64,000 bases of DNA from a virus. Taxonomy: Duplodnaviria; Caudoviricetes. Positions within the stretch are counted from its first letter, which is position 1. Each line of letters starts with the position of its first letter. The translations under genes and the position numbers were made by a program. The notes beneath the pieces are model-generated. The model saw nothing but the letters and a program-made list of their open reading frames with translations, was not told the origin of the DNA and did not search any database. Shown in pieces: positions 6,980 through 50,435 of this stretch. The stretch covers positions 85,925 through 149,924 of the IMG/VR virus record IMGVR_UViG_3300028048_000064, one strand, 5' to 3'.

Positions 6980-8017
6980 CAAAAAAAAAATAGAAGCAAA
7001 GTGGAAGAAAGTGTACTAAATTTGTTATATACCTTTTTGGGTAGTTATGGAAAACATTCAGGTGAATGGTATTCTTTTAATTGTCCTGAGTGTGCAGCAG
7101 AGAAAGGAGTTAAGGCCGACAATAAATACAACCTTGAAGTGAAGATAGACCTTACAGTTAAGGGCTGTGGAGGGTATCATTGTTGGCGTTGTAAGGACAC
7201 AAATGGTACAAAAGGTACACTTGTATCACTTTTCAAAAAATATGCCTCTAAAACGGTCTTAGATGAGTTTAAACAGATAGTAAATGACTTCCGTGAAGCA
7301 AAGAAGTATGAACTATTTGATGGAAGTGGTGTAATTCCGGATGAATTTATTGAAGATAATGAATTTTATCTCCCTGAAGGTTTTAAACCTATAAGGGAAA
7401 ATGACAAATATGCTGCCGATGTTAAGCAATATCTCTTGAAACGTGGTATTGATGATAAGATTATTAAGAAATACAATATTGGTTATATTGGAAACAATCC
7501 ATCAGTACATTTCTCATTAAGAAATAGGGTGGTTATACCATCATATGATGCTTTTGACAGCCTTAACTATTGGGTCGGACGTGATTATACAGGGAAAAAC
7601 AAGATTAGATACAAAAACCCAAAGGCTGAGAAGACACAATTCATATTTAACGAGGGAAAAATCAATTGGTATGAGCCTATTACACTTGTAGAAGGTCCAT
7701 TTGACCATATTGTAGTACCAAATTCAATTCCTTTGTTGGGTAAAACCTTGGATAAGGATTATTTGCTATATAAGACACTTATTCAGCGTTCAAGAAGTCT
7801 TATTTACATATTATTGGATGATGATGCATTATATAACGCCAAGAAGATATATAAATTGCTTGAAAATTCAGAATTAAGTGGCCGAATTAGGTTAATTGAA
7901 TGTCCGGCAGGTTATGATGCTTCATTGGTGTATGAAAAATACGGAAAGAAAGGGATTGTTTCACTTTTAACACATGCCAAGAAGTTAAATGACTATGATT
8001 TAGCAACTTTTCACTAA
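6977..8017 (+). CDS. DNA primase (Zn finger + TOPRIM); true start probably GTG 7001
   Basis: CPEC...CWRC zinc finger, YLLKRGI, RYKNP, LVEGPFD, LDDDA. Confidence 0.85.
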   Translation: MQKKNRSKVEESVLNLLYTFLGSYGKHSGEWYSFNCPECAAEKGVKADNKYNLEVKIDLTVKGCGGYHCWRCKDTNGTKGTLVSLFKKYASKTVLDEFKQIVNDFREAKKYELFDGSGVIPDEFIEDNEFYLPEGFKPIRENDKYAADVKQYLLKRGIDDKIIKKYNIGYIGNNPSVHFSLRNRVVIPSYDAFDSLNYWVGRDYTGKNKIRYKNPKAEKTQFIFNEGKINWYEPITLVEGPFDHIVVPNSIPLLGKTLDKDYLLYKTLIQRSRSLIYILLDDDALYNAKKIYKLLENSELSGRIRLIECPAGYDASLVYEKYGKKGIVSLLTHAKKLNDYDLATFH

Positions 8018-36453: not shown

Positions 36454-36544
36454 TTTATAGTAGATATTAAGAGCCACTATATTTCAAATAATAGTGGCAT
36501 TTTTTTTATTAACAATTTTGTTTAATAAAAAAAAAAATAATATT

Positions 36545-37747
36545 ATGGTGGCATATGAAGACATATTTGAAGCATATTTTGAATGCAGAAAAAAGAAAAG
36601 AGGTAAAAAAACTTCTTTAGAGTTTGAAATGAGTTATGAGGCAGAATGCGTATCTTTAGCAAATGAAATAAATAATCGTACATATGAGATTGGTACATCT
36701 ATAGCATTTTTTGTGCAAAGACCAAAGAAAAGAGAAGTCTTCGCCGCCAATTTTAGAGACCGTGTTGTCCATCATTGGTTAGCGTTAAGGCTTGAACCTT
36801 TATTTGAAAATTTGTTTATTGAAGACACATATAGTTGCAGAAAAGATAAAGGTACGCAATATGGCATTAAATGTTTAAAAGAAAAAATTGAACATTTAAG
36901 TAATAATTATACTGAAGATTGTTATGTTTCAAAATTTGATTTACAAGGCTTTTTCATGTCAATTGACAAGGAAATTCTTTGGACAAAATTAAAACACTTT
37001 ATAGAAGAAAACTACAAAAACACTGTTGATTTTGATGATGTATTATGGGTAACAGAAAAAATAGTCAAGCATTGTCCGGAGAAAAACTGTATAAAACGTT
37101 CTCCTGAAAGTTGGTGGATTGGTTTCCCCGAAGACAAGTCATTATTTACTTGTGGTGAAGGGAAAGGCCTTCCAATTGGCAATTTAACATCTCAACTATT
37201 TGCTAATTTTTATATGCATGAATTTGATGCAATGATGGTAGAAAAATTTGGAGACGGGTATGGCAGATATGTTGATGACTTTTTCATAATTGCTAAAGAT
37301 AAACAAGAGATATTGAATTTTATAAATCCAATGAAAAAGTTTCTTTTTGAAAGACTGCATGTAAAGCTTCATCATAAAAAGATGTATTTGCAGCATGGGT
37401 CAAAAGGTGTTAAATTCATTGGGGGTGTTGTCAAACCAAAACGTATTTATACGGGTAATGAAACCATAACCAACTTCTGTAATGCCATTGATGACATTAA
37501 TAAAAATTATCGTAAATATACAATTGAAGACATTGTATGCCGTCTTAATAGTTATTTTGGTTTTTTGAGACACACTAAAAGCTTTAATATAAGAAAAAGA
37601 ATGTTTTTAAAACTTAATTTAAAAGTTACTAGTAAGCTTTATTGCAGAGGCTTTTACGAAAGTGTTGTAATTAAAAAACAGTTTAAAAAGAAAAATAAAT
37701 TAAAAAATAAGATAAGAAGTTTAATAAAGAATAGTGTTGAATTTTAA
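36545..37747 (+). CDS. DGR reverse transcriptase
   Basis: KREVFAANFRDRVVHH, YSCRKDKGT, DLQGFFMSI, GLPIGNLTSQLFAN, RYVDDF; ATG 36545 is the likely start. Confidence 0.95.
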   Translation: MVAYEDIFEAYFECRKKKRGKKTSLEFEMSYEAECVSLANEINNRTYEIGTSIAFFVQRPKKREVFAANFRDRVVHHWLALRLEPLFENLFIEDTYSCRKDKGTQYGIKCLKEKIEHLSNNYTEDCYVSKFDLQGFFMSIDKEILWTKLKHFIEENYKNTVDFDDVLWVTEKIVKHCPEKNCIKRSPESWWIGFPEDKSLFTCGEGKGLPIGNLTSQLFANFYMHEFDAMMVEKFGDGYGRYVDDFFIIAKDKQEILNFINPMKKFLFERLHVKLHHKKMYLQHGSKGVKFIGGVVKPKRIYTGNETITNFCNAIDDINKNYRKYTIEDIVCRLNSYFGFLRHTKSFNIRKRMFLKLNLKVTSKLYCRGFYESVVIKKQFKKKNKLKNKIRSLIKNSVEF

Positions 37748-38803: not shown

Positions 38804-38873
38804 GCGTCTTTGGTGTAATGGTTGCATATCTGATTTCCAATCAGAAGGACAGGTTCAATTCCTGAAGACTGCT
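38804..38873 (+). tRNA. tRNA-Gly(TCC), acceptor stem bulged (possibly degenerate)
   Basis: TCTGA-TTTCCAA-TCAGA anticodon arm; CAGG-TTCAATT-CCTG T arm. Confidence 0.65.
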
Positions 38874-38878
38874 CTCTT

Positions 38879-39332
38879 TTGCATATCATAGGTAGTTTCT
38901 TCAAAATTCGGTGGAAATCCTTCCCTTCAAACCTGCAATTTATAATGTGTGGCTTAAGTATGGCGGAGGAACCACAACACTAATCAATAATGTGCAAGGA
39001 TAATACCGAGTTAAATTGAGATAATGACCTCCTTAATTGGACTGGGAAAGTTAAAAGCTTTTTATCTTATAGTACCTAAGTTGAAATTTATATAGTAGAA
39101 AAGCGGAGCACGTGTGAATCGGAGGTAACCAGTTCTAGTAGAAGCACTTCATCGTGTGGGCTGGGCATAAATGAGGAGATACTACTATGTAACTTGCAAG
39201 AATTTCAATAAGGTAATTTCAGACTACAACAAACAAAGAATAGAGGAATAGCAATTTGCTATAAACTCCACTGTCAACTGACAGGAAGTAGGCTTTATTG
39301 TACAAACCACTTTGTTTGGCTATGATATGCAA
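38879..39332 (+). ncRNA. Group-I-intron-derived structured RNA, no exons
   Basis: 13-bp closing helix TTGCATATCATAG/CTATGATATGCAA; P4-P6-like core shared with 44681-45030. Confidence 0.5.
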
Positions 39333-39348
39333 TCTTTAGAAAATATAT

Positions 39349-39638
39349 AGAACAAGTACAGACCACTGAGTAGGAACTGGGGAAGTGATAGGTAAATGCT
39401 AGCTTCATATTTATCATGTAGACGGACTCAAAGCAGTACCGACAGCCCAGTGAAAGGTGTTGGTTAGGATAAGGAGTTATCCAATACGTGAAGAGCAGCG
39501 TATTTCGTGAGAAGCCATAAGCAGGAACACAACAAATGCCGTAAAACAGCGCAAGTGCCTAATAGCGGGTTTCCTGATTAAATCTGAATAGATGATAAAA
39601 GGTTGCAAAAGTCTGTACCTCGTAAATTTACTTGTTCT
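39349..39638 (+). ncRNA. Unknown ~290-nt structured RNA
   Basis: Closing helices AGAACAAGTA/TACTTGTTCT and GTACAGAC/GTCTGTAC; GC-enriched, no credible ORF. Confidence 0.45.
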
Positions 39639-39645
39639 TTTGAAT

Positions 39646-39717
39646 GCTTGGATAGCTCAGAGGCAGAGCATCGCACTGTTAATGCGAGGGTCGGGATATC
39701 GTAATTCTCTCCAAGCG
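39646..39717 (+). tRNA. tRNA-Asn(GTT), atypical T loop
   Basis: TCGCA-CTGTTAA-TGCGA; acceptor GCTTGGA/TCCAAGC. Confidence 0.8.
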
Positions 39718-39861
39718 CAAAATATTTTTGTATTAAAAACTCCGAGGGTTGGAAGATGGTTGGACTTACGGCAAATGCTAGGAACCTGATGAACCGTAAG
39801 TCAAAGGTGTGTTGTAGGAGTTGCAGGTGAAACGGACAACAGTGTAGGAGTTTTTTTATAT

Positions 39862-40019
39862 GTGGCAGTAACTCAGTTGGTAGAGTGCCGGACTGAATAC
39901 AGAGTAAACTGAAAAATCAAACTTCGTATTGGTTGAGTGGCTGAAACTTTTAAACATTGGTTCGAATCCAATATACGAAGCAAATCCGGTTGTCGGTGGT
40001 TCAAATCCACCCTGCCGCA
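39862..40019 (+). tRNA. tRNA-Phe(GAA) interrupted after position 36 by an 85-nt insert (39898-39982) containing a tRNA-like module
   Basis: Joining 39862-39897 to 39983-40019 gives a canonical cloverleaf with CCGGA-CTGAAAA-TCCGG. Confidence 0.8.
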
Positions 40020-40097
40020 CATTTATATGAAAAAAAAACGTTCGAAACTTGTTTATTCAACTATTTATTAGTATATTTGCAATATATTAGTAAAAAA

Positions 40098-41144
40098 ATG
40101 AAAATGATTGATATTACAAGCGACGAAAACAAGAGAGAAATTTACAAATTATTTGATTCTTTTAATAAAAAAGAAGACATATACAATTATTTTGGAATAA
40201 GTCATAATAGCTATGGTGTTAAGTATGTTAATGCTATTGCATTAGAGATTAATTTTGATTTAAATATTTATCATAAAAGACGTTTTCCGGAAAGATTTTG
40301 TTTAAATTGTGGAAAAAAATTAAAAAAAGGACAAAAGAAATTTTGTGGCCATTCTTGTTCAGCCTCATATAATAATGCTACAAGTGCAAAAGTTGTTAAT
40401 AAGAAGAAAAAACAAGTAAAAAGTCGGGTAAACAAACAAAATAAATGTAAAGTATGTGGAAAAATAGATTGTTTACATACAGGCGTTTGTAATCATCATT
40501 CTTTAAATTGGTTTGATAATCTTATATATTTCGGTTTTGATAAAACGAAGTTAGGAACTGATGGCGTTTTTAATGAATATGAAAATGTAAAAAAGAAAAT
40601 TTCAGATGAATATAAAAATGGTTTGTCTGTATCTGCAATCAAAGAAAAATATAATTATCAGGGTTCAACTGAACGTCTTGTTCATGTTATGAAAAACATG
40701 GGAATTAATTTACGTTGTTTATCTGATGCTTTGCGTAAAGCCATTAGCGAAAAACGTTGTAAATTGCCAGAAGTTATGAAACAATTTAATTATGGGTGGC
40801 ATAATACATGGGATGGATACAAAGTTTTTTATCGCAGTTCATATGAATATGATTTATGCAAATATTTTGATGACAGAAAAATACACTATGAAATGGAAAA
40901 TTTAGTAATTGAGTATTTTGACACCATTTTAAATAAAAAGCGTTATGCGTTACCAGATTTTTATATTGAAAAAGAGAATAAAATTATAGAAGTTAAATCA
41001 AGAGTGACATTTGTTAAACAGAATATGATAGATAAAATGAAACGTTATATAGAGTTAGGGTATGATGTTTTATTAAATTATGAGCATAAAATGTATACCT
41101 TTGATGAAATGCTTAAAATTGAAGAATATAAGTATAAGATTTAA
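40098..41144 (+). CDS. Free-standing homing-type endonuclease, Zn fingers + C-terminal PD-(D/E)XK domain
   Basis: CLNCG..FCGHSC; YRSSYE...LPDFYI...IIEVKS; upstream ORF-track extension overlaps tRNA-Phe, so ATG 40098 is preferred. Confidence 0.75.
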   Translation: MKMIDITSDENKREIYKLFDSFNKKEDIYNYFGISHNSYGVKYVNAIALEINFDLNIYHKRRFPERFCLNCGKKLKKGQKKFCGHSCSASYNNATSAKVVNKKKKQVKSRVNKQNKCKVCGKIDCLHTGVCNHHSLNWFDNLIYFGFDKTKLGTDGVFNEYENVKKKISDEYKNGLSVSAIKEKYNYQGSTERLVHVMKNMGINLRCLSDALRKAISEKRCKLPEVMKQFNYGWHNTWDGYKVFYRSSYEYDLCKYFDDRKIHYEMENLVIEYFDTILNKKRYALPDFYIEKENKIIEVKSRVTFVKQNMIDKMKRYIELGYDVLLNYEHKMYTFDEMLKIEEYKYKI

Positions 41145-41151
41145 ATAATTT

Positions 41152-41350
41152 GGGAGGTTATTCCGTAAGTGGTAGCGGGGCTGACTGTATACAGAGTAAA
41201 CTGAAAATCAAATTTTAGTTTGGCTGAGTGGTTGAAAGCTAAGGCACTAAGTGCTGAGTGAATTTACACTCACATTCGCCGGTTCGAATCCGACAACTAA
41301 AACAAATCAGCTGCTTAACGGCTCGGGTGGTTCGACTCCATCACCTCCCA
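41152..41350 (+). tRNA. tRNA-Tyr(GTA) interrupted after the anticodon by a 115-nt insert (41190-41304) containing a tRNA-like module
   Basis: Joined exons give GCTGA-CTGTAAA-TCAGC, long V arm, GGTGG-TTCGACT-CCATC, acceptor GGGAGGT/ACCTCCC. Confidence 0.8.
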
Positions 41351-41378
41351 CATAATTTTTCATAACTAATGTTTCTGA

Positions 41379-41675
41379 TTGAATATGTTACAGAAAATTA
41401 AAGAAAAATATAAACGATACAAAAGGTTAAAAGGACTTAGAACATATCGTAAGTTAAGAAACACTTTTGATACTGAATATGGAAAATTCCTTGCTTATAT
41501 GTATTATGTCGGTGGTGAAGGAAAATTAGAAGACTTATATAAGTTATTTAATCCTGAAATAATTAGACGTGCTTGGTTTGCCGGATATTTTAACGTCTAT
41601 GATAAAAATTTAGGGTGGAAAGACCATCTGTACAATACAGATGTATATAAAAAATATGATAATGGAAAAAAATAA
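41379..41675 (+). CDS. Hypothetical protein
   Basis: ~97-aa ORF within the tRNA island. Confidence 0.5.
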   Translation: MNMLQKIKEKYKRYKRLKGLRTYRKLRNTFDTEYGKFLAYMYYVGGEGKLEDLYKLFNPEIIRRAWFAGYFNVYDKNLGWKDHLYNTDVYKKYDNGKK

Positions 41676-41908
41676 AATTCAGACCCGATGTTTTGCTGTG
41701 TCAGAGTAAATAAACAGTAGGTGGGATATGGTATGTCACCTTGATAGAAGAAACAGAGAGAAACTGTGCTAATATCAGAATAAACCATTAATACTAGTTA
41801 AGGGTAATGAGGTTTTGTAGGTAAGGAAACCGCCGCACTAAGTTTGGAAACAATAAATAAGAACTAAGTGAAATGGTAAGTTGGTTTATGGATTTCCAAC
41901 GTAAATTT

Positions 41909-41981
41909 AGCCCATTCATCTAGCGGCCTAGGATACATGCCTCTCACGCATGTCACAGCAGTTCAAATCTGCTATGGGTTA
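41909..41981 (+). tRNA. tRNA-Glu(CTC)
   Basis: CATGC-CTCTCAC-GCATG; full cloverleaf. Confidence 0.85.
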
Positions 41982-41992
41982 CAAATTATTTT

Positions 41993-42069
41993 GGGGGCGT
42001 AGTTCAGTTGGCTAGAACATCTGCTTTGCAAGCAGGGGGTCGTGGGTTCAAGTCCCACCGTCTCCACCA
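41993..42069 (+). tRNA. tRNA-Ala(TGC)
   Basis: TCTGC-TTTGCAA-GCAGG; encoded CCA. Confidence 0.92.
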
Positions 42070-42092
42070 ACTTGATTAACAAATGGTTATAC

Positions 42093-42166
42093 AGATGCTT
42101 AGTTCAGTTGATTAGAATATCGGTCTCCAAAATCGAGGGTCGGAGGTTTGAGTCCTTCAGCATCTG
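42093..42166 (+). tRNA. tRNA-Trp(CCA)
   Basis: TCGGT-CTCCAAA-ATCGA. Confidence 0.85.
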
Positions 42167-42172
42167 CAAAAA

Positions 42173-42245
42173 CGGGATATGAGGTTTAATGGTAGCCTGC
42201 GTGCTTTGGGAGCATGTCGAGTCAGTTCGAGTCTGGCTATCCCGA
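42173..42245 (+). tRNA. tRNA-Pro(TGG)
   Basis: CGTGC-TTTGGGA-GCATG. Confidence 0.85.
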
Positions 42246-42252
42246 CAAATAT

Positions 42253-42325
42253 GGTCGGTTCGACAAGTTGGTTAAGTCGTCGCCCTTTCAAGGCGGAGTC
42301 ACGGGTTCGAGTCCCGTACCGACTA
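42253..42325 (+). tRNA. tRNA-Glu(TTC)
   Basis: TCGCC-CTTTCAA-GGCGG. Confidence 0.9.
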
Positions 42326-42336
42326 CTTTCATTTTC

Positions 42337-42408
42337 GCCTCCTTGGGTGAGTGGCCGAGCCACCGGTCTGCAAAACCGGGTACCCCTGTTCGAGTCAGGG
42401 AGGAGGCT
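42337..42408 (+). tRNA. tRNA-Cys(GCA)
   Basis: CCGGT-CTGCAAA-ACCGG; U discriminator. Confidence 0.9.
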
Positions 42409-42423
42409 CATTAAATTATATTT

Positions 42424-42495
42424 GCCGGTGAAGCACAATGGTTGTGCAACTGATTTGTAATCAGTAGGCTGTGGGTTCGACCCCCATCACCGGCT
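42424..42495 (+). tRNA. tRNA-Thr(TGT)
   Basis: ACTGA-TTTGTAA-TCAGT. Confidence 0.88.
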
Positions 42496-42503
42496 CAAAG
42501 AAT

Positions 42504-42588
42504 GGCTTCATGGGGGAATTGGTAGACCCGGCAGACTTAAAATCTTCTGGCCAGTATGGCCGTCCGGGTTCGAGTCCCGGTGAAGCTA
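42504..42588 (+). tRNA. tRNA-Leu(TAA)
   Basis: AGA-CTTAAAA-TCT; long V arm. Confidence 0.85.
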
Positions 42589-42620
42589 CTGAATAATGGG
42601 TATTTAGCTCAGTGATAACT

Positions 42621-42694
42621 GTTGGCATAATTCAGTAGGTTAGAATGTCACGCTGATACCGTGAATGTGGGTGGTTCGAGTCCATCTGCCAACA
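42621..42694 (+). tRNA. tRNA-Ile(GAT)
   Basis: TCACG-CTGATAC-CGTGA. Confidence 0.85.
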
Positions 42695-42702
42695 CTTTTT
42701 AT

Positions 42703-42777
42703 AGTGCGTTAGTTCAGTAGGTTTAGAATGCCACACTGTCACTGTGGAGGTCGCCGGTTCGAATCCGGTACGCACTG
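42703..42777 (+). tRNA. tRNA-Asp(GTC)
   Basis: CCACA-CTGTCAC-TGTGG. Confidence 0.9.
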
Positions 42778-42796
42778 CTTATAATATTTAAATTTT

Positions 42797-43546
42797 ATGG
42801 AATATAATGTAGATGATATTAAAAAGTCAAAACCAAATCAAAGTTTTGAATTTATTTGTAAAAATTGTGGCTGTTCATTTTATCGTACAAAACGTGACAT
42901 TTCTAAAAATAAATATGAACTTCCAATGTTTTGTAGTTGTAAATGCAGAGGTGAATGGAAAAGTAAAAATCGTACCGTAAATGTTAAATGCAAATATTGT
43001 GGAAAAGAATTTAAAATTTTACTCAGTGATTATAATAGAAGCAAAACAAAACATTTTTTCTGTTGCCAATCTCATTCGGCATCGTATACTAACAGATATA
43101 GAAATAACGATAAAAAAATGAAAGATGTAGTATGGAAAGGTGGTAAACATAAAAAAGGATATAATGCTTGCCCTCGCTGTGGTAAACTAAAATCTTATAC
43201 CGCTGAATTATGCAGAAAATGTTGCATTGAGTTGAAACATGAAAAAATAAAATTAAAGACCCTTGGCTATTATATAGACGGACATAAATATTTGACTATT
43301 AAATGTAGTGAAATAAGAAAGGACGCTAGAAGAACAATTGAAAACAGTAATAAATTAAAACATTGCTGTTTTTGTGGAAACAATCATGAATTTGATGAGA
43401 TTCTTGACGTACATCATATAAAAGGCATATTAAAATTTCCTAGTTCTGCCACTATTGGTGAAATTAATAATATAGATAATTTAATGTGGGTTTGCCCTAG
43501 CCATCATAAGATGTTAGAGAAAGGTTTAATTACACTGACTCCGTAG
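42797..43546 (+). CDS. HNH homing endonuclease with multiple Zn fingers
   Basis: CKNCG, CKYCG, DVHHIKG...NNIDNLMWVCPSHH; stop codon lies inside tRNA-Lys. Confidence 0.85.
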   Translation: MEYNVDDIKKSKPNQSFEFICKNCGCSFYRTKRDISKNKYELPMFCSCKCRGEWKSKNRTVNVKCKYCGKEFKILLSDYNRSKTKHFFCCQSHSASYTNRYRNNDKKMKDVVWKGGKHKKGYNACPRCGKLKSYTAELCRKCCIELKHEKIKLKTLGYYIDGHKYLTIKCSEIRKDARRTIENSNKLKHCCFCGNNHEFDEILDVHHIKGILKFPSSATIGEINNIDNLMWVCPSHHKMLEKGLITLTP

Positions 43547-43609
43547 CTCAGTTGGTAGAGCACAACACTTTTAATGTTGGGGTCCCGGGTCCGAGTCCCG
43601 GCGGGGTCA
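43537..43609 (+). tRNA. tRNA-Lys(TTT)
   Basis: CAACA-CTTTTAA-TGTTG. Confidence 0.88.
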
Positions 43610-43621
43610 CTGAATTAATAT

Positions 43622-43694
43622 GGGACAGTTGGCCGAGTGGTTAGGTGCATGTTTGTGGCACATGTTTACGTTGGTTCGAACCCAACACTGCCCC
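43622..43694 (+). tRNA. tRNA-His(GTG)
   Basis: CATGT-TTGTGGC-ACATG; G-1:C73. Confidence 0.82.
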
Positions 43695-43701
43695 CATAAT
43701 T

Positions 43702-43774
43702 GCACCATTGGTGTTAGTGATTAGCATATCAGACTTCCAATCTGAAGGGGACAGTTTGAATCTGTTATGGTGCT
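43702..43774 (+). tRNA. tRNA-Gly(TCC)
   Basis: TCAGA-CTTCCAA-TCTGA. Confidence 0.82.
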
Positions 43775-43781
43775 CTAATTT

Positions 43782-43853
43782 GCAGTATTCGTATAGTGGT
43801 TATTACACCTGCTTGCCATGCAGGAGACGAAGTTTCGATTACTTTATACTGCT
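43782..43853 (+). tRNA. tRNA-Gly(GCC)
   Basis: CCTGC-TTGCCAT-GCAGG. Confidence 0.82.
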
Positions 43854-43974
43854 CTAATAATAGAAATTGACGATAGAGGTCTCAATGTTAAGTCCGGTAA
43901 CGGATAAAAGAAGTCTTGTTGGTTAAGGAAACCAGATTCCCTTGAAAGTACGTCCGTCAATTTTTTATATGAAC

Positions 43975-44158
43975 CTTGCAAGAAAACCCCATCCTTCAGG
44001 GTAGGGATGAATTGCAAAAAAATTCTTCGTAGGGGCATCTACGAATTGGCAAGCGGGAGTGAGACCATTGAGACTACGTGTCAAAGGGCATCCCACGCAA
44101 GCGTTGTTACACGAAGTGGCCAAGAATCCCTCAATCTTTAGGTGGGGGAGTATGTCAA
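43975..44158 (+). mobile_element. Non-autonomous IS200/IS605-type miniature element (left-end hairpin + omegaRNA-like right end), copy 1
   Basis: LE CCCCATCC-TTCA-GGGTAGGG; RE GAATCCC..TTTAGG..GGGGAGTATGTCAA; paralogous to 49837-50019. Confidence 0.75.
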
Positions 44159-44645
44159 GAACTAACAGAAGGAAACACCCGTATGTACTAGCGGGAGAAG
44201 TTACCGTAGGCAACCAATCTGAGGTTGAGATACATATCCGATTTGTATTGTAATTGGAGGTGGTTATTCATTAGTATGGATGTGTAGGATTAGAGTTGTA
44301 CGGGATAGTGGAATGTATGTTTTTAAGTATAAGTTGAAATTAATTCAGCAATGTTGATGCAATGAAGATTATCATTGAAATCTGAGTTTATGCAGCGGTG
44401 GCCATGTAATTGCATCAGTAGTGAGTCAAACGACACTATGGTCAAATTGTTGAATTTACTTGCAAGGATTTCGACTTTTTTTGATATGGTTTTACTCTGA
44501 CTTCGAGTACTGGCAATTCGGCAGAAAGCATTTATATGTTGTTAGATGCTATAGAGTGATAATGGTGGGAGTCCATGATGTCGTTTTGTGTTATCTACTG
44601 CTTGGAGAACTCTAATTAAAACTATTTTTGCTTTATTATATAAAT

Positions 44646-45038
44646 GAAAACATAAGCCTAATTGGTAAGGCAGTGGTCTTGAATTTAATTCGAGTGCTAT
44701 GGCGAGAAATCCCATAGTAGAATCTCCCTAAAACGGCGGAAGTCCTCAGAAGTGGGCATAAGTTGTGTGAGATATGTACATTCACACCACCTAAACAATA
44801 ATGGTGGAGGATAATACCGTGCTAAATTGAGAGACTATACCTTCAAATAACTTTGATGTTCATAAGGTTAAGTTTGGGTAAACAAGTTAGCCTCATAAAA
44901 GTGTCGAGAGTATATAGGAGATACCTAAGTTGAAATTTATAATGAAACCTAGAAGTGCGAACATCCAAGAAAGGTCAGTAGCTCGGTTGATTTATATCTC
45001 ATGAGAATTTTAATATGGTAAAAATAAACTGTCTTCCA
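44646..45038 (+). pseudogene. tRNA (Ser-like body) pseudogene with truncated group I intron after U34
   Basis: 5' exon GAAAACATAAGCCTAATTGGTAAGGCAGTGGTCTT; P1 CTTGAA/TTCGAG with U-G; P3 ATCTCC/GGAGAT; P4; R-like GTCGAGAGTATA; only acceptor 3' strand TGTCTTC remains. Confidence 0.6.
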
Positions 45039-45046
45039 TTTATAAT

Positions 45047-45130
45047 GGCGGGTTGCCGGAACGGTAACGGGCCTGACTTGAAATCAGAGGCATCCTTCGG
45101 GGTGAGTGGGTTCGACTCCTACACCCGCCG
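45047..45130 (+). tRNA. tRNA-Ser(TGA)
   Basis: CTGA-CTTGAAA-TCAG; long V arm with TTCG loop. Confidence 0.85.
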
Positions 45131-45220
45131 CACATACTTTATTTTTTCTAAAAAAAAAACGTTCGAAATTTTGTTTTTCCGCTATTTATTAGTATATTTA
45201 CAATATACATAAATAACAAA

Positions 45221-46117
45221 ATGAGAAAACGTAATATTATAGACATTAGTACAGAGGAAAAGAAAAAAGAAGTTTACGATATTTTAAATTCGTTATCAAG
45301 TAAAAATCAAATTCATGAGTATTTTGGTATATCAGATAATAAATGTGGTTCTGATTATGTTAAACAAATTGCTTCAAAAATTGGATTTGATTTAAACATT
45401 TATAAAGAAAGAAAAAAGAAACCTATTAAATATTGTAAGCAATGTGGTAATGAAATCACAAGTAAAACAGCAAATGAATTTTGTTGTAGTTCTTGTGCCG
45501 CAACGTACAATAATGAACACCGTTCAAAAGATGTTTATGAAAATATTGGTAACAAATTAAGAAAACATCCTAAAAAGGTATGTAAAGAAAAATATTGCGA
45601 AATATGTGGTAAAAAATTAGAAGGCCATCAGCATAAATATTGCTCTGAGAGTTGTAGGAATCGAAACAAATATTTAACGCAAGGACAAGAATTTATTTGT
45701 CAAGAATGTGGTAAAATATTTAAAAGTAGAAATCCAAATAGGAAGTTTTGTTCAAATGAATGTTGTGCTAAACATAGAGGTAAAGAAACTATTGACAAGT
45801 GGATTAAAGGCGAATATTTTTTAGACCCAAATTCAAAATTACCTAAATATATAAGATTGTTTCTTTATGAAAGAGCACATTATAAATGTGAAGAATGTGG
45901 CTTTGAAGGTTATAATAAGAGAACAAATAATACTATTTTACAAATTCATCATATAGACGGAAATTGTGGTAATAACTGTAGAGAAAATCTGAAAGTTTTA
46001 TGCCCTAATTGCCACGCTATGACTGAAAATTATATGGCACTCAATAAAGGAAAAAGTGCAAGGTCTAAAAGATATAAAGGAGAGAGCAACCAACAAGGAG
46101 TTGGGTCTGACTGCTAA
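45221..46117 (+). CDS. HNH homing endonuclease with Zn-finger repeats
   Basis: CxxCG..FCS..C repeats; LQIHHIDGN..NN...NLKVLCPNCH; 3' end overlaps tRNA-Ser(GCT). Confidence 0.88.
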   Translation: MRKRNIIDISTEEKKKEVYDILNSLSSKNQIHEYFGISDNKCGSDYVKQIASKIGFDLNIYKERKKKPIKYCKQCGNEITSKTANEFCCSSCAATYNNEHRSKDVYENIGNKLRKHPKKVCKEKYCEICGKKLEGHQHKYCSESCRNRNKYLTQGQEFICQECGKIFKSRNPNRKFCSNECCAKHRGKETIDKWIKGEYFLDPNSKLPKYIRLFLYERAHYKCEECGFEGYNKRTNNTILQIHHIDGNCGNNCRENLKVLCPNCHAMTENYMALNKGKSARSKRYKGESNQQGVGSDC

Positions 46118-46164
46118 TCAGAACGTGCTATTTGTGGCATAGGTATCGTAAACCTGCCTCTCCG
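46079..46164 (+). tRNA. tRNA-Ser(GCT), atypical D/T loops
   Basis: TCTGA-CTGCTAA-TCAGA; acceptor GGAGAG/CTCTCC, G discriminator. Confidence 0.7.
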
Positions 46165-46197
46165 CAGAGTTTAACATTAAAGCAGAAAGGAAAAATT

Positions 46198-46866
46198 ATG
46201 GAAAACAGTAAATACCCAAGAACGTTTCACGTCCCGTTCTCAGAAGGGTTACAGAATGATGACAGACGTGTTGATGACGATTGGTTTTCCTATTTGAAAG
46301 GAAAGGAACTGATTCTTAGCGAAAAATTAGACGGTGAAAACAGTTCTATATCTCGTTATGGTGTATTTGCTCGTTCTCATGCAGCACCTACAAGGAATCC
46401 TTGGTCAATAAACCTATGGGGAAATGACGGCCTTTATTGGAGAATTAAGGATTTGATTGGTGAAGATGAAATGATTTACGGTGAGAACTTATATGGTGTT
46501 CATTCGATTGAATATAATAGGTTGAAAGAATATTTCCATATGTTTGCCGTAAGGGATGAAGAGAAATGGTATTCTTGGGATGATGTTTCAGAAATGGCAC
46601 AGATTCTTGATTTGCCGACTGTTCCTGTATTGGAAAGACGTTCATTTGACACAGAAGATGAATTAAAGGAACACGTATTGTATTGGATGACGCAAGGCAG
46701 TAGGTATGGTGATACTATTGAGGGTGTTGTTATCCGTAATGTTGATAGTTATCCGATTGATGAGTTTTGTCATAATGTCGTGAAGTATGTACGTAAGAAT
46801 CATGTGCAAACTGACCAATTTTGGGCAAAAAATTGGAGAAAAGCGAAAATAACAGAATATTATTAA
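46198..46866 (+). CDS. ATP-dependent RNA ligase (Rnl2-like nucleotidyltransferase)
   Basis: KYPRTFH, motif I SEKLDGEN, III IYGEN, IV EGVVIR, V KYVR. Confidence 0.85.
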   Translation: MENSKYPRTFHVPFSEGLQNDDRRVDDDWFSYLKGKELILSEKLDGENSSISRYGVFARSHAAPTRNPWSINLWGNDGLYWRIKDLIGEDEMIYGENLYGVHSIEYNRLKEYFHMFAVRDEEKWYSWDDVSEMAQILDLPTVPVLERRSFDTEDELKEHVLYWMTQGSRYGDTIEGVVIRNVDSYPIDEFCHNVVKYVRKNHVQTDQFWAKNWRKAKITEYY

Positions 46867-46976
46867 TAACTTTTAACAAAAAATATTTGTAGATTCTTTG
46901 CACTGTCAAACGATGACAAAGTGTTCTTTTTATATATTTATATAATAAGAAAGGAGAAATAGAAAACACATCAAAG

Positions 46977-47444
46977 ATGATTATTGGTTCATATAATAGC
47001 ATGAGTTATCTTCAACCAGCAAATAAATGGTTGAAATATATTAACAAGTGGTTTATAAGGTATCAAGAAAAGACAATTGAGCAACAATATGCCGAAGGTA
47101 TAAGACTATTTGACATAAGGCTATTTGTTAACAAATATGGCAAGTTATGCTTTAAATGTCGTTTTGTTGAATATATTATATTCAGTTTATATGGTGTGTT
47201 TAATTTCCTTAATAAACAAGGTGATTGCTACGTAAGATTAACACTTGAAGAAACACTTGTTGATGCCGGTAGTAATAATATAAAGAATGTTGAGGAAAAA
47301 TTCATATGGGCTTGCAAATCATTACCAGAGATTTATCCAAATATTAAATTCTTTGGTGGAAAAAGAGAATTTGATGGAAAATTGCTGTATGAATTTAAAA
47401 ATGAATTGAAAGATTATGAATATAGACTTTTAACGTTTATATAG
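46977..47444 (+). CDS. PI-PLC X-box-like protein, probably catalytically altered
   Basis: GSYNSMSY (usual His replaced by Tyr), QEKTIEQQYAEGIRLFDIR. Confidence 0.6.
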   Translation: MIIGSYNSMSYLQPANKWLKYINKWFIRYQEKTIEQQYAEGIRLFDIRLFVNKYGKLCFKCRFVEYIIFSLYGVFNFLNKQGDCYVRLTLEETLVDAGSNNIKNVEEKFIWACKSLPEIYPNIKFFGGKREFDGKLLYEFKNELKDYEYRLLTFI

Positions 47445-47777
47445 AAAGACAAAAATGGAGAGTAAGGTGGCGCACTCCGCCGGAATAAAACGTCACGCTT
47501 ATAAGTCTGAAATTTTAAATACATATTAGGGTACAGAAATGACCGGGCGTAGATTTCAGTCTAAGTTCGTAGGAGGACTTCGAAATTGTATTTATTCTTC
47601 GAAGAATTTCAGATTTTTAGAAAATAGTTAGGAGATGCACCTAATGACTCAAGCATGCTGATATTTTGTTATGGTGACTTGCAAGATTTCTTAACTATTT
47701 TTGTTTTTGGAAAGTGAAAATAACAGAATTTTATTAGTTTTAAGTTATGGAGGAATTAAAAGACTAAGTAATGGTAT

Positions 47778-47851
47778 TGGGGTGTCGTATAGTCCGGTTA
47801 GTACACATGACTTTGACTCATGTAGCACCAGTTCAAATCTGGTCGCCCCAA
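47778..47851 (+). tRNA. tRNA-Gln(TTG)
   Basis: CATGA-CTTTGAC-TCATG. Confidence 0.88.
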
Positions 47852-47857
47852 CTATTT

Positions 47858-47931
47858 TAGAGATTGGTGTAAAATTGGTAACACGTGACACTCTGGATGT
47901 TAAGTTATCAGTCCGAGTCTGGTATCTCCAA
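47858..47931 (+). tRNA. tRNA-Gln(CTG)
   Basis: TGACA-CTCTGGA-TGTTA; one acceptor mismatch. Confidence 0.72.
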
Positions 47932-47938
47932 CTAATTT

Positions 47939-48022
47939 GGCTTCATGGTGGAATTGGTAGACACGAATGTCTCAAAAGCATTTGTCCGAGAGGATGTAAG
48001 GGTTCAAGTCCCTTTGAAGCCA
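47939..48022 (+). tRNA. tRNA-Leu(CAA)
   Basis: AATGT-CTCAAAA-GCATT; long V arm. Confidence 0.88.
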
Positions 48023-48024
48023 CT

Positions 48025-48149
48025 AAGCAAATAGTCATTTAATGGCAAGAACGGGGCGCATGGAGGAATATTGATGGAAACCATTGATACACAGTTAATG
48101 TGATGTTGCCAATCGGTGATGTTGGGTTCGATTCCTGACCTATTTGTTT
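48025..48149 (+). ncRNA. tRNA-like RNA with anticodon arm replaced by ~65 nt
   Basis: Acceptor-like AAGCAAATAG/CTATTTGTTT, D loop TTTAATGGCAA, T arm GTTGGG-TTCGATT-CCTGAC. Confidence 0.55.
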
Positions 48150-48209
48150 AATTTTAGTATTGAAAAACTGTTAAACTATATTTATATTAATATTTAAAGT
48201 TTAATTGTT

Positions 48210-48542
48210 ATGAGTTCAATATTAGATGAATATAAGAGATACACGGATGACAGTTTACTAACAGAGGAAGAAAAAGCCAAAGTTAGGGAGTTAGTAAATG
48301 ACTATGAGGCCTTAAATATGGATTTATTTATCCGTAAGATTGGTGGAATGGAACGTATTGAGGAAATGAAACGAATTAATGACGTTGCCGATGGCATGTA
48401 TGTTGTTGGCGGCAAGGTTGTGCATAAATCAAGGCCAAATAGTAATGCTTCTATTTCAAATAGACAGGAAGACCTGGATGAGTGGAAAAAAGGCTTCATG
48501 GAAGGTTTTGAGGAAGCATACAAGAGACTGAATATGAGATAA
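48210..48542 (+). CDS. Hypothetical protein
   Basis: 110-aa ORF preceded by TATTTAT. Confidence 0.55.
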   Translation: MSSILDEYKRYTDDSLLTEEEKAKVRELVNDYEALNMDLFIRKIGGMERIEEMKRINDVADGMYVVGGKVVHKSRPNSNASISNRQEDLDEWKKGFMEGFEEAYKRLNMR

Positions 48543-48558
48543 ATAATTTTTTATATAT

Positions 48559-48957
48559 GGGGATAACAGGCATTTGACAGCAAGTATGAAATGGTCTGTA
48601 AGCATGCAGTGTGAAGACTATTACACTTAAATCAATTTGGTCGAACAATTAATTGGCGAAACAACTTACGCTCTCGCTGCCTAATCGAAGTACAGTAGGT
48701 TACTGGCTTAATTCCCTTACAAGGTGAGGGAACGAGACATCACTTAATGAGTTATTTTCTGAGACTTGTTAGTATAGTGGTGCAGGAAAATCAGAAATAG
48801 TTGGTCTATGCCTTGATGGATTGATGAAAATTAAAAGGATAAGAATGCAATTTGGTAGTTCAAGTCGTGTTGCATTATGAAAATCAAAATTGAACTAAGC
48901 ATGTAGAAAATAGATGGTTTCCTTGTTTGGACGAGGTTTCGATTACCTCTATCTCCA
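48559..48957 (+). ncRNA. ssrA: tmRNA
   Basis: 5' GGGGATAACAGGCATTTGAC, 3' GGACGAGGTTTCGATTACCTCTATCTCCA, tag ORF 48655-48684 GETTYALAA*. Confidence 0.93.
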
Positions 48958-48968
48958 CAAATTAGGAT

Positions 48969-49054
48969 GCCGTTGTACCCGAACTGGTATAGGGGACAGT
49001 CTAAGGAACTGTTGCAACGGAAGTTGCGTGAGGGTTCGACTCCCTCCAACGGCA
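48969..49054 (+). tRNA. tRNA-Leu(AAG)
   Basis: ACAGT-CTAAGGA-ACTGT; long V arm; A discriminator. Confidence 0.82.
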
Positions 49055-49064
49055 CAAACATGAT

Positions 49065-49138
49065 GCCCCCATAGCTCAGTTGAATAGAGCACGATACTTC
49101 TAATATCGGGGTCACAGGTTTGAATCCTGTTGGGGGTA
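49065..49138 (+). tRNA. tRNA-Arg(TCT)
   Basis: CGATA-CTTCTAA-TATCG. Confidence 0.9.
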
Positions 49139-49177
49139 CAAAATTTTCTTGAAATTTACAATTTTTAACAAAAAATA

Positions 49178-49209
49178 TTTGGTAGTTTCAAAAATAATTA
49201 GTATCTTTG
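49178..49209 (+). promoter_or_regulatory. Bacteroidota-type promoter heading the Y-RNA-like array
   Basis: TTTG-N20-TATCTTTG. Confidence 0.75.
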
Positions 49210-49269
49210 CAACCGAATTAATGAAGAAAGCGTTCTTTAATATATTTATAATGTAGAAAACAAAAAAAT

Positions 49270-49353
49270 ACGAATAGTGATGTGAGAGTTACTTCGATAC
49301 AATATAATGTGGATATTTTCAATCAAAACTCACTCTCGCTGTTTTTCTTTCGT
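49270..49353 (+). ncRNA. Y-RNA-like unit 1 (stem only, no tRNA module)
   Basis: TAGTGA-TGTGAGA-GTTACTTCGA ... ACTCTCGC..TTTTCTTTCG. Confidence 0.55.
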
Positions 49354-49371
49354 TATTTTTTTAAAATATAA

Positions 49372-49516
49372 GTTGGTAGTGAAGTTAAGGGTTACTTCGA
49401 TTAATTATTGGTTCGAATCCAATAGATTCCGTTTTGGGAATTTTGGCGAAATGGTATACGCGAAACACTTGAAATGTTTTTTAGACAGAAACTCACCCTT
49501 GCTGTGATTCTCCAAT
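49372..49516 (+). ncRNA. Y-RNA-like unit 2, YrlA-type circularly permuted tRNA module
   Basis: Conserved stem encloses T arm (TATTGG-TTCGAAT-CCAATA), loop-closed acceptor (GATTCC/GGAATT), D arm and anticodon-like arm, in that order. Confidence 0.7.
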
Positions 49517-49525
49517 TTTTTATAC

Positions 49526-49665
49526 GGGCGTAAAGTTTAGAAAAAAGAAATTTACTGAAGGTATTTTCTTTGATTTTTCAATAGTGAACTTTACAGTTAC
49601 TTCGAATAGGTTAAAACGTTATCATGTCAAGATAAAGATTCTTGGTTCGACTCCAAGTACGCCCG
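49526..49665 (+). ncRNA. Y-RNA-like unit 3: tRNA-Asp(GTC) with the Y stem inserted (strand-swapped) in its D loop
   Basis: Acceptor GGGCGTA/TACGCCC-G, TTATC-ATGTCAA-GATAA; insert ~49541-49606 carries TAGTGA..GTTACTTCGA. Confidence 0.65.
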
Positions 49666-49670
49666 CAAAC

Positions 49671-49803
49671 AACAAGTAGTGACAGAAGAGTTACTTCGAT
49701 TTTTTAGCTAAGTAGGTTATAGCGCAATTCTGTTAAAATTGATGTCCGAGGTTCGAGTCCTCGAAGAATCTATTTTGTAATACTCTTCTAATTTTCTCTT
49801 GTT
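49671..49803 (+). ncRNA. Y-RNA-like unit 4 enclosing a complete tRNA-Asn(GTT)-like cloverleaf (49698-49771)
   Basis: AACAAG..AGAAGAGT / ACTCTTCT..CTTGTT stem; CAATT-CTGTTAA-AATTG. Confidence 0.7.
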
Positions 49804-49836
49804 TTTCTTTTGAAAGTAGTATATATTTATATACGT

Positions 49837-50019
49837 CTTGCAAGAAAACTCCATCCTTCAGTGTGTGGATGAATTGCAAAAAAAAATTCTTCGTAGGGGC
49901 ATCTACGAATTGGAAAGCGGGTGGAAGACCAGTGAGGCTCCGGCCAAAGGGCATCCCACGAAAGCGTCTAGTACGAAATGTCCAAGAATCCCCTCACTTT
50001 AGGGAGGGGAGTATGTCAA
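49837..50019 (+). mobile_element. Non-autonomous IS200/IS605-type miniature element, copy 2
   Basis: Paralogue of 43975-44158 (shares TTCTTCGTAGGGGCATCTACGAATTGG and GTATGTCAA end). Confidence 0.75.
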
Positions 50020-50028
50020 ATAAGAAAT

Positions 50029-50165
50029 ATGCAGTAGTGACGTGACTGTTACTTCGATAACATTTAGACAAGTGGTTAAGTCGCAATTTTTTGGTAATTG
50101 AGAACGCCGGTTCAATTCCGGCAGTGTTGTAAACAATAGCAAACAGTCACAAATTTTCTCTGTAT
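50029..50165 (+). ncRNA. Y-RNA-like unit 5 enclosing a complete tRNA-Gln(TTG)-like cloverleaf (50058-50130)
   Basis: GTGACTGTT/AACAGTCAC stem; CAATT-TTTTGGT-AATTG; GCCGG-TTCAATT-CCGGC. Confidence 0.7.
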
Positions 50166-50172
50166 TATTTAG

Positions 50173-50337
50173 TGGGCGGTAGTTCAGTGGTAGAACACGA
50201 GTCTCGTCTCTGTAGTTTAATTGGCAGAACACAAATTTTTATGATTTGGACATGAGGTCGATACTCATCGGAGGCACAAAGTTTTAAGAACTTACAAAAT
50301 AATCTCGAAATCCCTGGTTCGAGTCCAGGTCGCCCAA
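50173..50337 (+). tRNA. tRNA-Met(CAT)-like gene interrupted between C34 and A35 by a 93-nt insert (50206-50298) that begins with a full tRNA-like cloverleaf
   Basis: Joined exons give CGAGT-CTC|ATAA-TCTCG; acceptor TGGGCGG/TCGCCCA; T arm CCTGG-TTCGAGT-CCAGG. Confidence 0.7.
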
Positions 50338-50435
50338 CAAAAATATGTTGTCCCAATATATCGTAGGGAGCATGCAATTGTCTATTAATATAGGCTTTTG
50401 CATATTTTATTTTATATATAAAGATTTATTATTAA

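Follow-up and report, generated by a model that had tools for sequence, protein, structure and literature searches.

How can a bacteriophage obtain working tRNAs from genes whose anticodon loop is interrupted by a second, tRNA-like structure? The question is raised by three tRNA genes (Phe, Tyr and a CAU tRNA) in a stretch of 64,000 nucleotides from a virus of the Caudoviricetes (Duplodnaviria), positions 85,925 to 149,924 of the IMG/VR record IMGVR_UViG_3300028048_000064. This whole stretch is called the window here, and all coordinates refer to it. In bacteria and their viruses, tRNA introns are not known to be removed other than by group I self-splicing, and tRNA splicing that depends on proteins is regarded as a feature of archaea and eukaryotes. 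Our analysis indicates that the Phe and Tyr inserts are new members of an intron family that is in print but unexplained, and that this family follows explicit rules of architecture and boundary. We tentatively propose that such inserts are excised by tRNA-processing nucleases and that the tRNA halves are rejoined by an RNA ligase.

A first-pass annotation, made from the sequence alone, had described anticodon-loop inserts of 85 nt (tRNA-Phe), 115 nt (tRNA-Tyr) and 93 nt (CAU tRNA). This was borne out by Rfam, by ARAGORN after splicing in silico and by manual parsing. The Phe gene (39862-40019) matches the Rfam tRNA model (RF00005) from end to end with 52.4 bits and an 88-nt anticodon-loop insertion. 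The Tyr gene (41152-41350) was parsed by hand as a class II cloverleaf, and the stretch 41214-41302 within its insert scores 34 bits as a tRNA. Inside the third gene (50173-50337), both ARAGORN and Rfam recognize an inner cloverleaf (50206-50276/7) with the anticodon UUA and 38.4 bits. Once spliced in silico, the outer genes are read by ARAGORN as Phe(gaa), Tyr(gta) and Met(cat), each with a full cloverleaf, a 7-nt anticodon loop, U33 and a purine at position 37. The parts of the three genes are as follows.

39862-39896, + strand: exon 1 of tRNA-Phe(GAA), to anticodon base 35 (RF00005 and ARAGORN; could end at 39897).
39897-39921, + strand: Phe intron leader, consisting of A-U-A, a hairpin and an A-rich spacer with AAAUC.
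39900-39902 with 39909-39911, + strand: CAG/CUG hairpin of the Phe leader, loop AGUAAA.
39922-39981, + strand: Phe intron body, a mimic of the top half of a tRNA (covariation; 109 bits with the covariance model R1, see below).
39922-39929 with 39973-39980, + strand: 8-bp acceptor helix of the Phe body, with the T arm at 39956-39972 and a D-loop GG.
39982-40019, + strand: exon 2 of tRNA-Phe, from anticodon base 36 to A73 (C74 at 40020; CCA not encoded).
41152-41188, + strand: exon 1 of tRNA-Tyr(GUA), class II (manual cloverleaf; ARAGORN after splicing; exons identical in a relative contig).
41189-41303, + strand: Tyr intron, 115 nt (94 bits with model R1).
41192-41203, + strand: hairpin of the Tyr leader, followed by a spacer through 41212.
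41213-41220 with 41295-41302, + strand: 8-bp helix of the class-II-like Tyr mimic, terminal C at 41303.
41304-41350, + strand: exon 2 of tRNA-Tyr, with long variable arm.
50173-50205, + strand: exon 1 of the CAU tRNA (elongator Met or Ile2), ending with C34 (ARAGORN Met(cat) after splicing).
50206-50298, + strand: mirror-type intron, 93 nt (ARAGORN tRNA(tta); fold z = -2.4).
50206-50276, + strand: inner cloverleaf of the mirror-type intron, with 7/5 helices, anticodon loop UUUUAUG and an atypical T loop, flush with exon 1.
50279-50293, + strand: hairpin of the 22-nt trailer of the mirror-type intron, followed by ACAAA.
50299-50337, + strand: exon 2 of the CAU tRNA, starting with AUAA.

The layout is also as the annotation had described it: in all three inserts a tRNA-like module lies flush with one exon, and a small-hairpin spacer stands at the opposite side. 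For Phe and Tyr, a leader of about 25 nt with a small hairpin is followed by the module, which touches exon 2. The Met gene has the mirrored order, with the inner tRNA touching exon 1, so that its first base is the 5' intron border, and the 22-nt hairpin trailer behind it. The Phe body has no anticodon arm and is closed by C 39981, the final intron base, whereas in the Tyr mimic the anticodon hairpin is collapsed, the variable arm is long and a T arm is present. The thermodynamic folding of the inserts alone is unremarkable (z from -0.9 to -2.4); the case rests on the comparison with relatives.

The annotation knew of no description of this architecture. The introns as such have been in print since 2019: the tRNAs of Lak megaphages “contain enigmatic introns”, of which that of tRNA-Thr “itself may encode a tRNA”, and they have no Rfam match (Devoto et al. 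2019, Nat Microbiol, PMC6784885, Fig. 4, Table S6). An architecture, a boundary rule or a mechanism is not given there, and a tRNA is noted in the Thr intron only (PMC6784885). The claim of the annotation is therefore wrong in part. Our literature search found no later paper explaining the Lak tRNA introns.

Judged by covariance-model matches, the Lak introns are homologues of the Phe and Tyr inserts. The model was built from five well-aligned members, as aligning all members with MAFFT gave too poor a basis. Made from window-lineage members only, this model (R1) matches the Tyr, Phe and Gly introns of Lak-A2 and the Phe and Tyr introns of Lak-B1 with 41-53 bits (E ~1e-9 to 1e-6). Furthermore, both groups lie in the anticodon loop of phage tRNA genes, share the order of leader hairpin, A-rich spacer, tRNA-like body and terminal C, and show presence/absence polymorphism; the Lak Phe intron even has the same ACAG-AGUAAA-CUGU hairpin. 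Unlike the Lak genomes, the window derives from a rumen contig of 150 kb that is 41% complete (estimate) and uses the standard code, and its mirror-type Met intron has no Lak counterpart.

The first 15 members of the leader-first design, here called type A, comprise two from the window, five from a 235-kb relative contig, two from a 302-kb contig and six from Lak-A2 and Lak-B1. A pattern scan of metagenomes for the exon-1/leader junction added 21 distinct members from rumen and human-gut assemblies, giving about 36 distinct inserts of the same design with lengths of 64-141 nt. They start with N-U-A, followed by a hairpin of 3-6 bp whose hexaloop is A-rich (AGUAAA, AAUAAA, AAACAA or AGAGAA; one exception has a 9-nt loop), and by an A-rich spacer holding AAAUC or AAAUU. 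In the body, a linker of 7-79 nt, in which GG is always present, leads from an 8-bp helix to a 5-bp T stem with a UUCGAnU-type loop. The 3' strand of the 8-bp helix follows the T arm directly, and the last base is a single C. The shortest members (64 nt) are just hairpin, spacer and a minihelix with a 7-nt linker. A looser pattern of leader plus T loop gave, besides the known relative, chance matches only.

Both helical parts of this design are conserved as structures. The leader stem covaries across the family (CAG, ACAG, UACAG, UAAUGG, ACGG, CAAUC, CAGG, UACAAG, ACAAG), and the Phe leader sequence is found identically in the Tyr intron and in 21 metagenomic introns. The 8-bp helix exists in more than 25 different versions, almost all of which are fully paired. 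In a model-fitted alignment, which leans towards structure and includes three ordinary tRNAs, 99.6% of the helix cells are paired and 14 of the 16 pairs have changed on both sides, and the covariation score is 0.94, compared with 0.25 after shuffling and no more than 0.17 with slid partners. From these comparisons, the recurrence of the nested design is far beyond chance. The Phe intron of one metagenome contig (L151, - strand near 7560) has a body like a full tRNA with an insertion of about 35 nt in the anticodon region, and may represent a third nesting level.

The borders of the inserts could be fixed with the help of a natural intron-less allele. Lak-C1 and Lak-B1 carry the tRNA-Thr gene of Lak-A2 without its intron, and the unambiguous alignment of the alleles places the end of the inserted unit on the C after the inner helix, with exon 2 opening with A37. 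For all type-A members a 3' border directly after this C is possible, and for several it is obligatory. When applied to all members, the rule always yields a 7-nt loop with U33 and A37. The resulting position in the loop is 33/34 in one of the first 15 members, 35/36 in seven of them and in all 21 metagenomic members, and 36/37 in another seven of the 15. A fixed 36/37 insertion site was rejected in favour of an intron-defined border. As the position varies, the splice sites must be set by the intron and not by a ruler on the tRNA body. Exon 1 retains 2, 4 or 5 loop bases in different members, which excludes an exonucleolytic trimming of the leader to a fixed stop. The borders of the window introns have a register ambiguity of 1 nt, with either register yielding the same product. 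By the family rule, they most likely span 39897-39981 and 41189-41303, between anticodon bases 35 and 36, one base to the left of the borders given by the annotation. An exact 28-nt junction pattern for an intron-less allele of the Tyr gene had no match in metagenome contigs.

The rule also assigns consistent identities to the interrupted genes. All six outer bodies with a long variable arm (class II) become GUA (Tyr), plus two in this lineage, and all nine class I bodies become GUU (Asn), plus three; one of these rule-typed Asn genes is homologous to the intron-less Asn gene of the window (39646-39717). An ambiguous gene of the relative contig is typed as Arg(UCU). The rules thereby correct annotations, since tRNA finders miss or mis-type such genes (Asn as Tyr, Phe as Cys). 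For example, the published Lak “Tyr(GTA)” genes at L007 c17503-17667, L009:19707-19922 and L105:1501-1598 have class I bodies and are Asn(GUU) by the rule. When introns are allowed, ARAGORN mis-types the interrupted Phe gene of the window as Cys and the Met gene as Thr. Lak-B1 also has a Phe intron, whereas the table of the Lak paper gives one intron for B genomes.

At the DNA level, the following comparisons show that the element is mobile and modular. The Tyr exons and the leader are identical in the window and the relative contig, their tRNA-like bodies are different, and the Tyr body of the relative matches the Phe body of the window. Identical Phe exons carry at least four different insert bodies, and the Asn bodies of Lak-A and Lak-B are very different although the insert in them is nearly the same. 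In addition, the interrupted Phe orthologues of Lak-A and Lak-B have compensatory changes in their T stems, the outer as well as the inner one, so selection maintains the outer tRNA and the inner mimic alike. Selection on the outer tRNAs would imply that they are used, and their use that the inserts are removed from the RNA. By this reasoning, the interrupted genes of the window are evidently working genes for Phe-GAA, Tyr-GUA and a CAU tRNA; according to ARAGORN, they are also the window's sole Phe, Tyr and CAU tRNAs.

How, then, would the inserts be removed? As the annotation had stated, a group I or group II core is missing: Rfam models of group I, group II, hepatitis delta virus (HDV)-like, hammerhead, twister and YrlA RNAs gave no match on the inserts at E<=5-10. 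No covariance-model match was obtained for small ribozymes in general (HDV-like/theta, hammerhead, twister, pistol, hatchet), a test that covers the described classes. A motif of the bulge-helix-bulge (BHB) type, likewise denied by the annotation, was not seen at the junctions, where the exon-1 loop bases and the intron 3' end are not complementary. The inserts resemble the group I introns of tRNA-Leu (UAA) and tRNA-fMet, which are often accompanied by homing endonucleases, in being mobile, in their variable position within the anticodon loop and in the exact restoration of the exons. However, they are small (64-141 nt), lack a P3-P9 core and a Rfam match, and end in C (type A) instead of the terminal G, so self-splicing is not expected. 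For group II introns they are far too small and have neither a Rfam match nor a six-domain/domain V structure. With archaeal and eukaryal tRNA introns (BHB, EndA/TSEN, RtcB or Trl1) they would share a protein-catalysed excision from the anticodon loop followed by ligation. Unlike those, they have no BHB, are not located at 37/38, occur in records of which none of five encodes EndA, and would yield 3'-OH/5'-P ends and not cyclic phosphate/5'-OH ends.

We favour protein-only splicing, in which RNase Z or RNase P cuts at the mimic, a second nuclease cuts at the leader and an RNA ligase seals the halves, and give this reading a probability of roughly 40%. RNase Z leaves a downstream 5'-phosphate, RNase P and RNase E-type enzymes leave an upstream 3'-OH, and an ATP-dependent RNA ligase joins such 3'-OH and 5'-P ends. 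We infer all enzymatic steps as follows. A host 3'-processing nuclease of the RNase Z type would cut after the inner C and leave a 5'-phosphate on exon 2. A second endonuclease would cut between N and WUA before the leader hairpin and leave a 3'-OH on exon 1; it might be a host RNase E/G/Y-like enzyme or a phage protein reading the conserved leader. A U at +2 is a hallmark of RNase E sites. RNase P may additionally release the mimic. For the mirrored Met intron, RNase P would make the 5' cut, at the cloverleaf flush with exon 1, and the 3' cut would fall between A and AUA, five bases past the trailer hairpin. The exon halves would be held together by the tRNA body while the ligase seals the nick in the anticodon loop.

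Excision by RNase P and RNase Z with subsequent ligation had been one of two readings offered by the annotation. The edges of the inserts fit it and all our findings are compatible with it, but it is incomplete: these two enzymes alone would leave the 22-27-nt leader or trailer on an exon, so a third cut specified by the leader is needed. The mechanism is plausible and unproven, and is now bounded by explicit rules.

Several properties of the mimic and of the tRNA genes around it are in line with such a role. The mimic has the features of an RNase Z/RNase P substrate, namely a coaxial acceptor/T helix with its D/T elbow, followed by an unpaired 3' trailer that lacks CCA, and is a predicted substrate; its helix has 8+5 bp, not the usual 7+5. 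Most tRNA genes of the window (about 22 of 25; span 38804-50340) end in N73-C-A/U, i.e., with the first C of CCA only, and apparently just one has a complete CCA after N73. Endonucleolytic 3' trimming and CCA addition must therefore act in the infected cell. The junction between the inner helix with its C and the following A/U copies this context of the array tRNA 3' ends. The Lak tRNA genes likewise encode the first C of CCA only, and the inner mimics copy the N73-C-A/U end.

The likeliest sealing enzyme would be a phage ligase of the same tRNA array, which the annotation had already pointed out.

46198-46866, + strand: ATP-dependent RNA ligase, nucleotidyltransferase domain only (Pfam PF09414, E = 7e-28; PHROG RNA ligase).

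Its motifs I (K-L-D-G), IV (E-G-V-V-I-R) and V (K-x-x-K) are intact, and a comparison with solved structures gave no sequence match. The annotation had suggested looking for co-occurrence of the ligase and Ro60 in related phages. Among five intron-bearing records (G000, the window contig; G001; G002; Lak-A2; Lak-B1), the PF09414 ligase is present in four, and it lies within about 10-15 kb of the Lak tRNA arrays; Ro60 is absent from Lak-A2, Lak-B1 and G002. None of the five phage records has an EndA (PF01974), RtcB or RNase Z-like gene, with EndA controls positive in archaea only, so a host enzyme would do the trimming. Bacterial hosts are not known to have an EndA/TSEN splicing endonuclease.

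Parts of the proposed route have precedents. In the mascRNA of MALAT1, mitochondrial tRNA punctuation and plant tRNA-snoRNA precursors, a tRNA-like fold within a longer RNA brings RNase P and RNase Z to its edges, which then cut that RNA, as proposed here for one splice site; unlike there, where the flanks are not rejoined, the tRNA halves would here need ligation. The Pnkp/Rnl1 repair of T4 is similar in that a phage ligase encoded with tRNA genes seals an anticodon-loop nick held by the tRNA body. However, T4 mends damage by a host anticodon nuclease and needs end healing, whereas the breaks proposed here would be programmed, no kinase/phosphatase lies beside the ligase, and the ligase belongs to PF09414 and not to the Rnl1 family.

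A number of observations weigh against protein-only splicing by this set of enzymes. Contig G002 (82% complete, estimate) carries introns without a PF09414 ligase, and the activity for which PF09414 enzymes are best known is the sealing of duplex nicks, not of broken anticodon loops. Apart from these points, one contig of the metatranscriptome run X2 joins 45045 to 48241 and skips 3,195 bases with a tRNA-Ser, an HNH gene, the RNA ligase, a 155-aa open reading frame (ORF) and three tRNAs. It probably comes from a strain without this cassette, in which case some relatives can do without the ligase. Recognition by RNase P, and not the marking of an RNase Z site, could be the role of the C after the helix, and the leader-side nuclease is putative. 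The leader is strongly conserved in sequence and also occurs between genes without a tRNA, where it could be a promoter or regulatory site and not a cleavage signal. Two rumen metatranscriptomes cover 68-82% of the window as assembled contigs, which over 39828-41899 have the unspliced form at a depth like that of the surrounding coding DNA and speak neither for nor against splicing. No splice-junction match was found among the listed joints of the two metatranscriptome contig sets. Finally, the Met gene is a singleton, as its exact 24-nt exon-2 pattern had no match in IMG/VR, and its intron type is represented by one sequence.

The wider claim would be a third, protein-only route of tRNA splicing in Bacteroidota phages, in which a top-half mimic recruits host trimming enzymes and acts together with a portable leader and a ligase, the leader being also an RNA-processing site before genes of unrelated phages. 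This we put forward with still more reserve than the splicing mechanism itself.

The strongest rival, which we consider unlikely, is a dedicated phage endonuclease that reads leader hairpin and mimic and leaves 2',3'-cyclic phosphate and 5'-OH ends. These would be joined by host RtcB, or by end healing followed by sealing, without a part for RNase P or RNase Z in defining the splice sites. The conservation of the leader in sequence, not just in structure, does suggest a specific protein partner. RtcB is present in the host group (the B. thetaiotaomicron control was positive), and the ligase-free contig G002 and the many window genes without assigned function also fit this explanation. On the other hand, an EndA-like gene or a candidate nuclease common to all records was not found, and the mimic keeps features read by RNase P, RNase Z and the CCA enzyme (8/5 helix, elbow, N-C end before A or U) that would be superfluous for a private enzyme. 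A healing enzyme beside the ligase is also missing: its 298-aa neighbour, considered as a polynucleotide kinase/phosphatase, was rejected as such because PHROG identifies it as an HNH endonuclease.

Rather improbable is a rival that takes in the second reading of the annotation (unspliced double-tRNA decoys against host anticodon nucleases, or Ro60 ligands): the inserts would stay in the RNA, being selfish DNA or a gene within a gene. The transcripts would be cut into tRNA halves and a decoy or a Ro60/Y-RNA-type ligand, and the outer tRNAs would not decode. A TROVE/Ro60 gene is indeed encoded at 28551-30215 and in a close relative, the contigs from the RNA runs have the unspliced form only, and a clean insertion would also restore a perfect loop on paper. 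In addition, the tRNA-like module of the bacterial YrlA RNA is similar to the mimic, a tRNA top half (acceptor, T arm, D-loop elbow) that has no anticodon arm. Yet the inserts have no YrlA match and no Ro-binding stem around the mimic, and neither the two complete Lak genomes nor G002, all of which bear introns, have a TROVE gene. Moreover, more than 35 interrupted genes keep flawless cloverleaves, 7-nt loops, U33 and A37, intron-bearing orthologues have compensatory outer-stem changes, identical exons occur across at least four insert bodies, and the interrupted genes are the array's only Phe, Tyr and CAU tRNAs. The absence of TROVE and the compensatory changes in the exons speak against this part of the annotation. 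Just upstream of the Met gene (49270-50165), repeated UAGUGA...GUUACUUCGA units are fused to tRNA-like pieces and recur in the relative (L006:14900-15340); they are possible phage Y-like RNAs.

A third explanation concerns the leader. The pattern ACAG-AGUAAA-CUG, 1-4 nt, AAAUCAA is present in 70 IMG/VR contigs, mostly outside tRNAs. These other sites are intergenic, in more than 60 marine and rumen phage contigs with 1-3 copies per genome, and follow a stop codon or a terminator-like hairpin, 27-59 nt before a small co-oriented ORF. Examples among the loci L010-L078 are L066:10588, L063:271 and L051 (two copies), in addition to 39899 and 41191 in the window; on the window's own contig, the leader is found solely in the two introns. 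In 185,579 prokaryote genomes the pattern has 17 matches, mostly in an unrelated-looking Lachnospiraceae element, so it is not a chromosomal signal of Bacteroidota. In a dozen Firmicutes genomes, the same 24-mer forms the 3' end of a conserved non-coding element of about 85 nt, before an intrinsic terminator (loci L080-L082, L087-L091 and L093-L095; Lachnospiraceae, Clostridia). At permissive thresholds, Rfam gave no match on the intergenic leader sites; this element has no Rfam match either.

The leader could thus be a promoter or regulatory site acting as DNA, and the insert a mobile cassette of promoter and tRNA-like part whose position at the exon border results from the mode of insertion. 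This would agree with the intergenic copies of a 20-25-nt motif in more than 60 phage contigs, always co-oriented with the ORF downstream, with the location of the rumen-phage copies just after terminator-like hairpins, and with the low copy number of 1-3 per genome. We nevertheless consider it highly unlikely. In the intron family the hairpin stem covaries and the loop is fixed, as expected for a folded single strand, the Lachnospiraceae 24-mer directly precedes an intrinsic terminator and hence lies inside an RNA, and the intact exons would remain unexplained. The leader also has no likeness to the -33/-7 promoter consensus of Bacteroidota. The leader is a portable signal, and we favour an RNA-processing or protein-binding site, given the covarying stem and the one context that clearly lies within an RNA.

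Least probable of all is a new small self-cleaving or self-splicing ribozyme formed by leader and mimic: the hexaloop and AAAUC are conserved without a known partner, and theta/HDV-like ribozymes reportedly occur beside phage tRNAs, but no Rfam ribozyme matched at permissive thresholds (known classes tested), the 64-nt members are no more than hairpin, spacer and minihelix, the bodies are freely exchangeable with only tRNA-like helices kept, and the folding energies are near those of shuffled sequences.

In rumen and human-gut viromes, dozens of phage tRNA genes that are evidently functional are interrupted by this family, which has neither a ribozyme nor a BHB motif; the insert is inside the anticodon itself in most members examined. 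The Lak-type introns have been an acknowledged puzzle since 2019, for which the rules extracted here (N-U-A start, C end after an 8/5 helix, variable loop position, exchangeable body) provide a framework. If confirmed, they would define a new intron class and a mobile element that borrows housekeeping tRNA-processing enzymes. It could possibly shield phage tRNA genes or transcripts from nucleases, and would offer a compact design for programmable RNA excision.

The place of the mirrored Met insert is less clear. It fails the homology test to the Lak-type introns (model R1 and type-A parse), and is a possible mirror variant of the family. Its trailer (50277-50298, AAGUU...AACUU-ACAAA) resembles the variable-arm hairpin plus GCAAAC before the T arm in L138, L148 and L150, which are class-II-like intron bodies of 117 nt, and this likeness hints at a shared origin. 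Where the window has the Met gene, a different CAU tRNA of 87 nt stands in the relative contig, its variable region being 20 nt long (L006:15378-15464).

The window represents the last 64 kb of a virus contig of 149,924 bp with an estimated completeness of 41% (CheckV). Matching sequencing runs are bovine and sheep gut (rumen) metagenomes, and we class the virus as a jumbo phage of the cattle rumen. Its DNA is weakly similar to that of the Prevotella Lak megaphages, which together with the tag of its transfer-messenger RNA (tmRNA) points to a host among the Bacteroidota; the standard genetic code fits. The tRNA array at 38.8-50.4 kb comprises 24 ARAGORN tRNA genes, the tmRNA, two HNH endonuclease genes and the RNA ligase gene. 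Further genes in and beside the array are the following.

36494-37747: reverse transcriptase (RVT_1, PHROG 1423), beside the tRNA array.
42797-43546, + strand: free-standing HNH endonuclease within the tRNA array (Pfam HNH_2; PHROG HNH).
45221-46117, + strand: second HNH endonuclease, directly upstream of the ligase (PHROG 1271, E = 1.5e-33; weak McrA-like match).

The reverse transcriptase was rejected as a mobility factor, since none of the four other records with introns, among them that of the close relative, contains it. The HNH endonuclease at 42797-43546 is a candidate driver of mobility at the DNA level, with a putative link to the introns. Two further tRNA genes of the array, the above-mentioned Asn(GUU) with its unusual T loop and a second Gly(UCC) at 43702-43774, are found by Rfam and missed by ARAGORN.

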